Translations under genes and position numbers: made by a program
Shown here: positions 41,589-63,828 of the stretch, in pieces
Position numbering within the stretch: the first letter of the stretch is position 1
Layout of the letters: every line of letters starts with the position of its first letter
The notes under the pieces: generated by a model
Told to the model about the DNA's origin: nothing
Database searches by the model: none
The model's input: the letters and a program-made list of their open reading frames with translations, nothing else
Origin: Mobula birostris
Lineage: Eukaryota
Length of the DNA: 64,000 bases
Assembly: GCF_030028105.1 (NCBI RefSeq)
Contig: NC_092371.1
Location: 132,314,766-132,378,765 of the forward strand
Direction: 5' to 3'

Positions 41589-42116
41589 ATGGGCGACGAA
41601 CGAAAGTTGTTCGTCGGCGGACTGAGCTTTGAGACGGACGAGCAGGCGCTGGAAGCCGTTTTCTCCAAGTACGGCGAGATCGTTGACACCCGGGTGATCA
41701 AGGACAAGGTCACCATGACGTCCCGCGGCTTCGGCTTCATCACCTTCGAGAACCCGGAGGATGCCTCCGAGGCCTTACAGGCAATGAACGGCAAGTCCTT
41801 GGACGGCCGCCAGATCCGGGTGGACCACGCCGAGAAGAAGTCGGGAGACGGCGGTTACGGAGGAGGACGCGGCGGCTACCGGCGGGGCGGCAGCTACACG
41901 AGCGGAAGCGGCGGCTACGGAGGCGGCGGCTACGGTGGCGGCGGATACGGTGGTTACGGCGGCGGCAGTGGCTACAGCAGCGGCGGCTACGGCGGAGGTG
42001 GTTACGGTAGCGGAAGCGGCGGATATGGTGGCTATCGGCAGTACGAGCCCAAGTCGGGCGGCGGCTACTCCCGGGGGACCCGTGGTAATAACTACGATCG
42101 GTACTCTACCAGATAG
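41589..42116 (+). CDS. Intronless cold-inducible RNA-binding protein-like gene 1 (CIRBP/RBM3 family, 175 aa)
   Basis: RNP2 LFVGGL, RNP1 [22 protein letters not shown], Gly/Tyr-rich tail ending NNYDRYSTR (cf. CIRBP DSYDSYATH); uninterrupted ORF. Exact orthology is unresolved, so no symbol is given. Confidence 0.92.
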
Positions 42117-43303
42117 AAGCCCACCGCCGGCTGTGCTTTCCAGGTCACCGTGATCCTCGACCACTTGCTGTTTCTGAAGGGACTTTTTTTTGGGGCGAAC
42201 GCCGTCTAATCTCTTGAATTCAATCTCGCTTCTTCGGGACGCTGTCTAACTCTCCGTCCGCTCACATTCCCATCCTTTGTTGCAGTAAAGGTTTCTCACA
42301 GCAACGGCGGGGCAGGGGGGAGGGTTTGCCGGACCTTTTCCGAAATTCCGAACTTAATTAGTCCCTTAGCAGTGTTTCTCTCCCACAATAATTTCCCAAT
42401 AGCTTTTGTTCTTTTTGTTTATTTTTGACTGTTAAGGATGTAGCTCCATTGACCTCCGCATTCTAGCCCGTCAGCTCAGTGCTGCCTCTCCCAGTGCCCG
42501 GGCGTTGCGTTAGCTGCTGATTTTTGTTTGCTCCGTTCTGGTTTTAAAATGGCGTACTCGCCTTGTGCAGAGACATTCAATGCTCAAGTGTGTCGGCAAT
42601 GTGCTCCAACAACTCCTCCTCCCCTGCCCGCCCGCCCGCAGTAATCTTTAGGACCGCCAGGGTATCTGGCTGACTAACTGCATTGTAACGTAACATTTTC
42701 GTCTTTAGTCTCAGACCAGTTTTGGAAGTGGGAGCATTTTCTATTTTATTCTCGAGGTTTTATGGGGCCACATTACTGATTTAAATAGGGAACAACGATC
42801 CAATTGATTTTTAAGTAGGCTGGGGGATCCGCTGTAGTTTCAGCTGGTTGGGGAAAACGCCACATTTCTGGAGATTGCATTCGTGAGCAACAGTTTGACT
42901 TTGTATCTTCTGTTACAGATATGACTGTTTTAATGAGTGCAAAACATTAAAGAACATTGATTCGGGGGAGTGGTGCAGTCCATCCCCGGCAATTGTACAC
43001 TTATCTAGTTATATTGTGGGTGATACTGATATCTGACAAACTGTTTTCAATGTAAATCTTGTGCCATCCCAACCAGTAAACACTGTATGCTGGTTTGGAG
43101 TATGGCCTCTGCATTAAGTGAGAAGTCTGCAGTTGAAACTTTAGTACTGTCCTACTACTCTAAGTAGTACAACATTAAGCTAACAGTTTTTTTAATGGCA
43201 AATTGTTAGGAAGTTGATAGCTGTTTCTTATTGAATTTTCATGAGTTAGCATGGAACGTTTTTGTACAAAAACTTGCCACTTTGGAGACATGTCAATGGG
43301 AAA

Positions 43304-43309
43304 AATAAA
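43304..43309 (+). terminator. Candidate polyadenylation signal of CIRBP-like gene 1
   Basis: AATAAA ending a TE-free 3' region of about 1.2 kb, followed by GT/T-rich sequence. Confidence 0.6.
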
Positions 43310-60209: not shown

Positions 60210-61545
60210 CCCACAAGACCAGATATGGGAGCAGAATCAGGCCATTCAGCTCAGATTCCAATTGAATTTTGCTCTGCCATTTCATCCTGGCTAATTTATT
60301 ACCCCCCTAATCCCATTGTCCTGCCTTCTCCATGTAATCTTCGATAACCTTACTAATCAATTTACCTATCAACCTCCACTTTAAATGTACCCTAATGACT
60401 TGGTAAACCACAGCCATCTGTGGCAATGAAATTGTGTAATTCAACAACTATTGAGGCTATGCCATCTGGCCCCACTACCCCCACCAAAGGAAAAATCCTC
60501 TCCACGTCCACTCAAGCTAAGCCTTTCAATATACAATAGGTTTCAATGAAATTCCCCCATTCTTCCAAACTCCAGCACAGAACTGGAGCCTCAAATTCTC
60601 TTCATACATTAAGCCTTTAATTCCTAGAATCGTTCATAAGACGACCAACGCCCTTTCAGGCATCATGCTTCCTTTAATATTACTTTTCTCTCAAAAATCT
60701 ATGTTACCATTCTATTTGCCTGTGCAGAGACTCCCAAGCCCCTTTGCATTTAGAAAACAGTCTAGGCCTTCAATCCTTCTACTAAAGTGCATGATTCCAC
60801 AGCTTCCTATAAATTCCATCTGCCAGTTTGCACCTTCTCCAAATCCATGTTCTGCACATCCTGCTCCCCAAAACCTACCTGCCCTCTGTATCAAGATCAA
60901 TTCCACCATCAAATCCTCCTACTGAAGATGGCTACTATCGAACCAATTTGACAGTATCTCTTCCCACCACTCAAAAAGTTCCCTCATCTGCTGCTGCATC
61001 TTGGGATGAGGCTTTCCATTCCTGAAGATTGATGTCATGACATTTTGAAAGAATGGTCTTCCCCTTCCAATGTTGTCCTTGCCCATATCTCCAGTACTTT
61101 CCACACATCTGCCCTCACTCATCCTGCCACAACAGGGATAAGGTTCACTTTAATCACAAATCCCTAAATCCTGCCATATGCAACAGGTTCCTACCATTAA
61201 GCACCTCACCCACCCCCCCCTTTCCCATTCATTCCTCCCTATGATCTGCCTCCAGGCACTTATCCCCTTCTTCATCACTACTCAGTGCCAGTCCTTCCAC
61301 GCAAGACAGCACTCCACTACTGAGACCTGATAAAAATTGTGTAAGATTCCAGTGGCTACCATTAACATTTTCTAAGTTCTGCTATATTCTTCAATCCCAT
61401 TTTGGACCCACCACTCACCTCATGCCCCAGTGCTGTCCTCCACAGTCAGCTATGTTCTATTATGAAGGGTCTCCACCCAGAATATGAACTATTCCTCTCC
61501 ATTGATGCTGCCTTACCTGTTGAGTTCCTCAGCATTTTTTGTGCT
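60210..61545. mobile_element. Decayed CR1 (-, about 60210-60880) followed by a decayed Penelope (+, about 60880-61545)
   Basis: WQMEF..CGIMHF (CR1 RT); Penelope-type segment similar to 19450-20615 ending in gatgctgcc..acctgttgagttcctcagcatttt. Confidence 0.6.
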
Positions 61546-63414
61546 ATTTCACCATTCTGCTTAATCCCATGGCAATTTTGAATCCACTTTGCTAGCTAGC
61601 TTGTCCTTTACCCCAATGGCCATATCAATTATCCCATTGTGGATAAAGGCTAACTGAAGTACATGTAGATACCATGCTGCACTTGTCTTGAGATTTGTAC
61701 CAAATATCACCAGTACACATTGCATTGGCTTTATGTCCCTTGAGGTCACCAATGCCAGAAAGGCAATGGGATTTAGGCAAAGTCAGCAGGCAATAACCAG
61801 TATGAGGATTTGGGCCTTGGATCAAGACCATGAATGCAAAAAAACCTTGATTTACGACGATTGGGCTTTCAATTTTATGTCAAAATGTGAATGTCTGAAA
61901 ATTGGTTGGAGGCATTAATTATTTGAGAGTAGGGAATATAAAAAGTTAGTCAAATTTATTAGTCCTCATCAAGGTTTGTTGGGGCTGCTTTAAGTGCACA
62001 AATTAGGTTTCTCTACAGGATACAAAAATCAAAATTCAATGGCTATTATTGGCTTTTCATTACCTTGCCTATTTATACGTAATTGCATTTTAAATCCAGC
62101 AAAAGTGCCTAACATTCCAAAAAAAGGCTATGAAAATTGTCACATTTGACAAAATAGCTATCACTCAGATGTGAATGGCAGAAATCTCTCCTGTCCGTTC
62201 CTCCGTGCAGTTGCCTCTTAGATTTTTATAATTTGGCAGTGAAAATGATAAAATATAGTAGCTCCCACCTCATGCAGAATTAACCCTAGGACCTACATTA
62301 GCAATATGTGAAAAAGAGCTTTAATTAAAATTAGGTGAACACCAAATACCTAGAATGCCGCAATGTTAAAAGTACAGTTTCCGCAAGCCATCATTTTAAT
62401 TAATTGCTCGAAAAGTAAACACCGAATGTAATAGGGCTTCTGGAAACATGGCGAGCGAACTCCAACGCAGCTGATAAACGAGCGCACTCGATTCCAGGTA
62501 CAACATGGCGAGGCGAGGCGGCCACGCAGGCCCGCTCTGGCTCCTCCCTCCCTCCACACCATGAGTCGGTGGAGCACGATGGGCGATGGCGACCCGCACG
62601 CTGGTGGGACTACCGCCGGGAGCCGGAGCGGGGGCGGGCCAGGGAACCATTTGCTCAACACGTGGGCATGCAGTGCTGCAGCCCCGCCGCAGTGCCACCC
62701 GTTCGGCAACCCGCCCCCCCCCCCCACCGGAATGACGGGCCCGCTAGGGTCAGGCCTCGACCTCGGCCCGCCACTACTCCACGTGTCGCACCACGAGATC
62801 CCGCAGGGCCGCTCCGGCCGACCGACCGAGCACTCACCTGATACACCGACCAACGCTCCGCTCCCCACGACCTGAACAAAAGCATTTTGCAGACAAAAAT
62901 TCATTTCCATTTTTAATATGTCACTTTTGCAAAGAATTTCGTACAGAACGCGTGTTCAGCTTTCCACGAAAATAATTTGTCTTAAGGAAATAAAGTACCC
63001 AGGCTTCGGAAAGCGGGATTTTGCTTCTCAAACGACACATTTTCACCATTAGGAGAGACCAGACTGCTTCAACGCTACAGAGGCGCTGGGTCACTACGCA
63101 CATCTACCGCCCGCCACAACTTCCTCCGCGTTAATTCAAAGTAAAAAAATGTCTTTTAAGTTACAAACTGGGTGAACTTTTAAGCTATAAAACTTCGCGA
63201 CGAACAAAGGAGGGGGTGGAGCAGGAAAGCGAGTGGAGCACAAGAGGGGAGAGGCGTTTGGCACCAACAGAGGCAGTCCTGTAATGGCGGGACGGGACTC
63301 ATGGACAGGAACCTGCCGCCTCCCCGCTCCTCCTCCCTCAGTAGGGTGTTAAGTATAGGGTGGGGGTGGGGAGAGAAGTGGGCCTCGGTTTCAGGCCGGG
63401 TACACACACGCAAG

Positions 63415-63828
63415 TCACTGGTAGGAGCTGCGGCCTCCATAACTGTAGCTGCCTCGGCCTCGGGAGTAGCCGTCACCGCGGTAGTCCCTCGTGTCATACT
63501 GCCGGGCGCCGAATCCGCCACCTCGCCCGCGGCCATAACTTCGTCCTCCGCCGCCGTAGCCACCGCCGCCTCCCGACTTCTTCTCAGCGTGGTCCACCCG
63601 GATCTGGCGACCGTCCAGAGACTTGCCGTTCATCGCCTGCATTGCATCGTGGGCATCACCCGGGTTCTCGAAGGTGATGAAGCCAAAGCCGCGGGACGTC
63701 TGGGTGTCCCTGTCCTTGATAACACGCACCTCGGAGATCTGCCCGTACTTGCAGAACACCTCCTCCAGTGCCTGCTCGTCCGTCTCAAAGTTGAGGCCGC
63801 CGATGAATAACTTTCCTTCCTCGGCCAT
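63415..63828 (-). CDS. Intronless cold-inducible RNA-binding protein-like gene 2 (CIRBP/RBM3 family, 137 aa)
   Basis: Strong Kozak accaccATGG; LFIGGL / [18 protein letters not shown] tail; uninterrupted ORF in a CpG island. Confidence 0.92.

Follow-up and report, generated by a model that had tools for sequence, protein, structure and literature searches.

What are two intron-free genes of a family known for splicing-based temperature control doing side by side on one chromosome of a ray, and are they genes at all? The question is raised by a window of 64,000 nucleotides of Mobula birostris (contig NC_092371.1, positions 132,314,766 to 132,378,765 of the forward strand), which carries two reading frames for RNA-binding proteins of the CIRBP/RBM3 family, here called gene A and gene B, both downstream of GLO1. 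The reading that we favour, with a probability of about 0.62, is that A and B are intron-free members of an old GLO1-linked CIRBP/RBM3-family cluster that likely goes back to one retrocopy and lacks the splicing switch. A fuller version, in which at least three intronless genes have stood together since before the chimaeras split off, have escaped the splicing thermostat and provide chaperones with three types of tail at any temperature, is put forward only tentatively.

Two intact genes of the CIRBP/RBM3 family

Both reading frames are uninterrupted and convergent, with a stop-to-stop distance of 21.3 kb. Each encodes one RRM_1 domain according to Pfam (residues 7-77, E about 3e-24) with RNP2 and RNP1 intact as read from the translations, and 68 of the first 86 residues are identical between the two proteins. 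The first-pass annotation, made from the sequence alone, had described two intact, intronless CIRBP/RBM3-type frames facing each other about 21 kb apart, and its coordinates, domains and identity count were confirmed. The tail of A has two RGG motifs and 44 glycines in 91 residues, that of B one RGG, five RG and 21 glycines in 53 residues, and BLASTN of A against B with their flanks showed similarity in the RRM and in short glycine repeats and nowhere else. The best single-domain PDB matches of B are CIRBP (E 9e-38) and RBM3 (E 7e-35), against 7e-30 for RBMX. Among the best 120 of about 7,000 matches for each protein, the named vertebrate top matches are CIRBP/RBM3-like, and the ESM Atlas returned CIRBP-like and plant glycine-rich clusters only. 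A and B thus have a single N-terminal RRM that is closer to those of CIRBP and RBM3 than to those of RBMX or hnRNP A1, followed by a Gly/Arg/Tyr tail with RGG/RG motifs; their frames are uninterrupted and they do not group with bony-vertebrate CIRBP or RBM3. Judged from their sequences, they are members of the CIRBP/RBM3 family and not canonical orthologues. RefSeq already names their relatives CIRBP-like or RBM3-like.

Comparison of the RRM codons of the two paralogues gave a dN of 0.128 and a dS of 0.45, a ratio of 0.285 over 86 codons, in which dS is rough given a third-position GC of 0.87 in A and 0.81 in B; a Fisher test for constraint between A and B, on rounded counts, gave p 4e-4. A stretch of A is present in 22 sequencing runs of seven studies, none recorded as RNA, and four of these runs (X1, X3, X14 and X19) were mapped as contigs over 28000-46000. 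GT-AG joints between GLO1 exons were found in all four (two joints in 4/4, a third in 3/4), indicating that these runs carry spliced RNA. All four cover A, in X19 by a single contig (41506-43324) with no joint among those displayed. The contigs of X3 and X19 both end at 43324, shortly past the AATAAA of gene A, with 24 unaligned letters that we infer to be poly(A). Evidence of transcription is thus direct for A and indirect for B, for which it consists of the loose ends of contigs that cross-match the RRM of A: by eye, these continue into B sequence in 4/4 runs and, in X1, into the sequence of a third type of gene, C, described below. Contigs of the GLO1-splicing runs also cover parts of the gap between GLO1 and A (35866-41588) and continue into A from positions before its TATA box; they may stem from read-through of GLO1 or from transcription starts farther upstream.

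Each gene has its own CpG island and core promoter, as had been annotated, and the promoter types differ. The ratio of observed to expected CpG (o/e) is 1.28 in the frame of A and 1.04 in that of B; in the intervening 44001-62000 it is 0.16. In front of gene A are a TATA box (41490) and an ETS-like motif (41506); the 172 bases of the 5' region of gene B that fall inside the window contain two CCAAT boxes and a GC box but no TATA box. This 5' region of B matches the linker of a Hypanus gene model (65% over 66 aa, E 2e-23) and an N-terminal extension in Pristis (E 2e-10), and sequence upstream of A weakly matches the N-terminal extensions of two skate type-A models (E 2e-4 and 4e-4). By these matches the 5' regions of both genes are conserved in other rays.

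From the paralogue dN/dS of 0.285 and the unspliced contigs over A we conclude that A and B are functional genes and no pseudogenes; with the intact orthologous proteins of other species, this agrees with the earlier view that selection has kept both. Non-functional copies of recent date, either processed pseudogenes or an inverted duplicate, could be expected where LINE remnants are abundant and where other species hold degraded B-like copies. Against such an origin stand the dN/dS of 0.29, the retained CpGs, promoters conserved among rays, intact shark and ray orthologue proteins and the rejected sister relation of A and B (below), and we give it almost no credence.

The cluster in cartilaginous fishes

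The top matches of both proteins, among the same best 120 each, are chondrichthyan, and the tails sort these cartilaginous-fish relatives into three types, A, B and C. A full-length tree of 43 rows comprised 25 cluster members (six A, seven C, eight B and four from the chimaera Callorhinchus) and 18 other family members. Types A, C and B were supported at 100, 91 and 77, respectively, each holding sharks and rays; the four Callorhinchus copies formed a group of their own (88), and all 25 cluster rows split from the 18 others at 99. The A protein of the window joined five shark and skate type-A proteins (SH-aLRT 100) and its B protein joined batoid type-B proteins (99). In a tree of 82 RRMs the cluster again separated from all other family members (99/98), with bony-vertebrate CIRBP/RBM3 and multi-isoform shark genes across the branch. 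Rooting of this tree failed, as its root was one spider RRM whose long branch fell inside type A, and three fungal and plant rows had been dropped, missed by the motif cut. Two marker residues set apart 54 of the 206 scored proteins, all of them top matches, and every named one is chondrichthyan; eight of the 54 are without a species name and two are the window's own.

Forcing A and B of the window to be sisters was rejected with a p-AU of 9e-64, which places their split before that of sharks and rays. Together with types that each span sharks and rays, unrelated flanks, and the position of B and A on one strand in Leucoraja, this speaks against an inverted local pair, that is, the local duplication with inversion from which the two genes had first been derived.

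Catshark and chimaera sequences hint at concerted evolution of the RRM, which we do not claim: catshark B and C have 74/80 RRM residues in common, more than with any orthologue, but neither C nor B was rejected as a clade in tests on the RRM by itself (p-AU 0.37 and 0.24, respectively). Three chimaera copies (P0023, P0036 and P0203) have 78-79/80 RRM residues in common; their tails differ and, in a tree built from tails alone, fall with type A.

A cluster protein lies on the contig of GLO1 in 16/16 species for which both values were available, contigs being matched by size, and within six accession numbers of GLO1 in 8/15 species (Amblyraja, Rhinoraja, two Chiloscyllium, Heptranchias, Scyliorhinus canicula, Heterodontus and Mobula hypostoma). 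This comparison covered species other than Callorhinchus, whose four copies share one contig, two of them with cDNA-based records. Multi-isoform family genes lie on another contig (90.8 vs 167.9 Mb in Hypanus, 34.7 vs 115.6 Mb in Amblyraja), and in Hypanus and Hemitrygon two of them are adjacent on a separate contig. The proposal of a separate cartilaginous-fish subfamily linked to GLO1 is thus supported by both trees and by contig sharing in all 16 species. As regards other loci of the family, the stingray multi-isoform CIRBP locus seemingly contains two adjacent, divergent genes (P0110, P0291 and P0292 beside P0284 and P0288), and Amia has three family types on one contig.

Some RefSeq models run from one cluster gene across promoter DNA into a second and so predict spurious proteins with two RRMs (P0192, P0194, P0195 and P0204). 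Fused models of this kind are probably prediction artefacts, of use for strand only, and give the orders C then B in Hemitrygon and Hypanus, B then A in Leucoraja and C then C in Carcharodon. As A and B are on one strand in Leucoraja (one model), their facing arrangement is probably not general among cartilaginous fishes. The Hypanus linker matches 63806-64000 of the window and a Mobula type-C protein is on the same contig as GLO1; a type-C gene therefore most likely lies past the end of the window, upstream of B, and the search for further copies beyond position 64000 that had been advised probably has one to find. A weak similarity (E 0.16) between the Leucoraja linker and 56611-56694 was dismissed as chance.

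B-like copies, some of them degraded, occur on other chromosomes in both Scyliorhinus species, Rhinoraja and Hypanus (P0008, P0011, P0012, P0015, P0017, P0021, P0027 and P0198), and are probably secondary retrocopies of gene B. If so, B would be transcribed in the germline, as expected if the cluster, like many retrogenes, were specialised for the germline or early embryo. Such a specialisation appears very improbable to us, as the 22 runs of seven studies that contain A, and its coverage in every mapped run, suggest broad expression.

Retrocopy origin and the splicing thermostat

A retrogene origin is likely from the genomic sequence. Under the favoured reading, a spliced mRNA of the CIRBP family would have been reverse-transcribed and inserted beside GLO1 before chimaeras and elasmobranchs split; the retrocopy would then have acquired a CpG-island promoter and given rise by duplication to A, B and C ahead of the shark-ray split, and the facing orientation of A and B would be a later local rearrangement. 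The 'old retrogene' of the first-pass annotation is likely in so far as the genes are intron-free, transcribed and constrained. As for the intron-bearing parent that was to be sought elsewhere, there are multi-isoform family genes on another chromosome, which are candidates.

Several points weigh against this reading. Absence of introns was seen directly in this genome only, and the type-A gene of Amblyraja has two modelled isoforms that differ by 46 aa of tail, which implies a spliced form. Tests for the parent rejected none, leaving RBM3 and both multi-isoform shark genes as candidates. No poly(A) remnant after 43324 and no target-site repeat was identified, neither of which is expected to survive at the age of the cluster. 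Type B as a clade reached a support of only 77. Linkage to GLO1 was judged from proxies, contig size and accession numbers, rather than coordinates, and in 7/15 species the cluster accession is 17 to about 840 away from that of GLO1. On the side of transcription, the contigs of X1 and X14 extend to 43604 and 43804, and those of X1, X3 and X14 reach upstream of the TATA box of A (to 40945, 40750 and 40776, respectively). A further 346 joints lie outside the displayed joint table, so minor splicing in A is possible. Lastly, RNA is not the recorded source of any run, X1 carries the label 'probably DNA', and contig depth is no basis for ranking genes.

The cluster might instead be an ancient paralogue that arose when the whole genome or a segment of it was duplicated and that may correspond to RBM3, with introns lost in place and the gene lost in bony vertebrates. 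A quick full-length tree set amniote RBM3 beside the cluster at a support of 59, the trees are without a reliable root, and the absence of the cluster among bony-vertebrate matches is what loss would also give. Yet trees that join the cluster to either multi-isoform shark gene score 4-5 log units above the free tree, loss of all coding introns is usually mediated by reverse transcription, and we know of no paralogy between the GLO1 block and the CIRBP or RBM3 regions. We therefore rate this origin as unlikely.

Members of this family contact single-stranded mRNA through the RRM; their disordered RGG/YG tail has roles in import, in methylation and in the formation of granules. A and B may be expected to work in the same manner, with the three tail types leading to differing protein behaviour.

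How such genes would be controlled can be judged from the known members. In mammalian cells, cold induction of RBM3 needs the poison exon 3a, deletion of which abolishes temperature dependence, and control of CIRBP at all levels described runs through splicing (exons 7b/8, introns 1 and 6), with the 7b region conserved across vertebrates; these statements are from PMC11346455, and PMC10165353 likewise gives splicing as the basis of RBM3 cold induction. A copy of a mature mRNA carries none of these intron and poison-exon elements, so that A and B would be without the splicing thermostat. By analogy with the mammalian data, we predict that their expression is largely temperature-independent; output would be set by promoters and 3' untranslated regions (UTRs) and would probably be high, while the intron-bearing genes on the other chromosome would keep the thermostat. 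The label of cold- or stress-response genes that the pair had been given is unsupported, since the published switch is intron-based and A and B are without those introns.

The same cluster, with the same origin, could nevertheless respond to cold or stress by way of transcription or of mRNA stability, and its intronless genes could then be made even when splicing is slowed. Many HSP70s are intronless stress genes and A has a conserved TATA promoter; the family is stress-associated according to PMC11346455. The effect of deleting exon 3a, the control of CIRBP through splicing reported in the same paper, and the housekeeping-type CCAAT/GC promoter of B speak against induction, which we consider possible and the less probable alternative to temperature-independent output.

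Likenesses to known systems are close in architecture and end at gene structure. CIRBP (hnRNP A18), the best single-domain PDB match, has the same N-terminal RRM and Gly/Arg/Tyr-rich tail. Unlike it, A and B have no coding introns and hence no control through exons 7b/8, intron 1 or intron 6; their place is next to GLO1, the multi-isoform shark genes being on a different chromosome, and they have the two marker residues and other tails. RBM3 has the same architecture, shares some RRM residues with type B and may be the sister of the cluster; A and B differ from it in being without intron 3 and thus without poison exon 3a. RBMXL1/2/3 and other retained mammalian hnRNP retrogenes are also intronless copies with an RRM and RG tail, whereas these are mammalian and dispersed and the ray and shark set is older, at one locus and has three tail types. 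Retained retrogenes of RNA-binding proteins are therefore already known, and what is new here is age, clustering and the predicted loss of the thermostat. No paper on this cluster was found by title or abstract start, in a search outside of which most subscription journals lie. The terms 'cold' and 'intronless' are absent from the main text of PMC3466250, the supplements of which may list cluster cDNAs.

If the fuller version given at the outset is true, the cluster would be a natural 'poison-exon deletion' roughly 400 million years old, beside thermosensitive genes in the same cells. According to PMC10165353, ways to remove the splicing switch are being sought so that more RBM3 is made and neurons are protected, and ectotherms with switchable and intronless copies would allow a direct comparison in nature, showing if the switch is required and what unswitched expression does. 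For annotation, cluster genes are now listed as unrelated 'CIRBP-like' or 'RBM3-like' entries, some fused into false multi-RRM proteins, and thermal-stress transcriptomes of sharks may mix two differently regulated gene sets.

Further features of the window

The coordinates are collected in Table 1.

Table 1. Features of the 64,000-nucleotide window (position 1 is its first letter)
Feature	Position	Strand	Remarks
GLO1 (lactoylglutathione lyase)	25872-35894	+	six coding exons at 25872-34731; GT-AG joints
CpG island over promoter and reading frame of gene A	41281-42390		sequence composition
Gene A, reading frame	41589-42116	+	175 aa; one RRM and 91-aa Gly/Tyr-rich tail (type A)
3' UTR of gene A	42117-43324	+	AATAAA at 43304; transcripts inferred to end mainly at 43324
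LINE-type reverse-transcriptase fragment	46378-47268	+	RVT_1, E 1e-25; several remnants of repeats, this one included, lie in the A-B interval
Second CpG island, 3' of gene B	62351-62970		UTR or separate element
CpG island over gene B	63081-64000		sequence composition
Gene B, reading frame	63415-63828	-	137 aa; one RRM and 53-aa Arg/Gly/Tyr tail (type B)
5' region and promoter of gene B	63829-64000	-	two CCAAT boxes, GC box; continues past window edge

Downstream of B, candidate poly(A) signals are at 62917 and 61960. The second CpG island, which has a core of 62% GC and two YY1-like motifs by eye, begins near the former and may be UTR or a separate promoter. Two long GC-rich open reading frames nearby (62350-62910 and 62561-62872) have no Pfam match. 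A smaller CpG island (42421-42730) lies inside the 3' UTR of A.

The sequence 3' of both genes had been called free of transposable elements (TEs). Self-BLAST, which finds matches in 29% of the window, found none in 42100-44000 or 61000-63500, so the statement holds as far as repeats within the window are concerned. Rfam has no match in the window. A minus-strand reading frame at 51135-51518, with what we take to be an aspartic-protease-like motif, is probably a piece of an LTR retrotransposon. On the far side of GLO1 are exons at 2703-6170 that are presumably YIPF3-like, a name that Pfam did not confirm, and a CpG-rich stretch (13000-14000, o/e 0.64-0.74) lies between these exons and GLO1.

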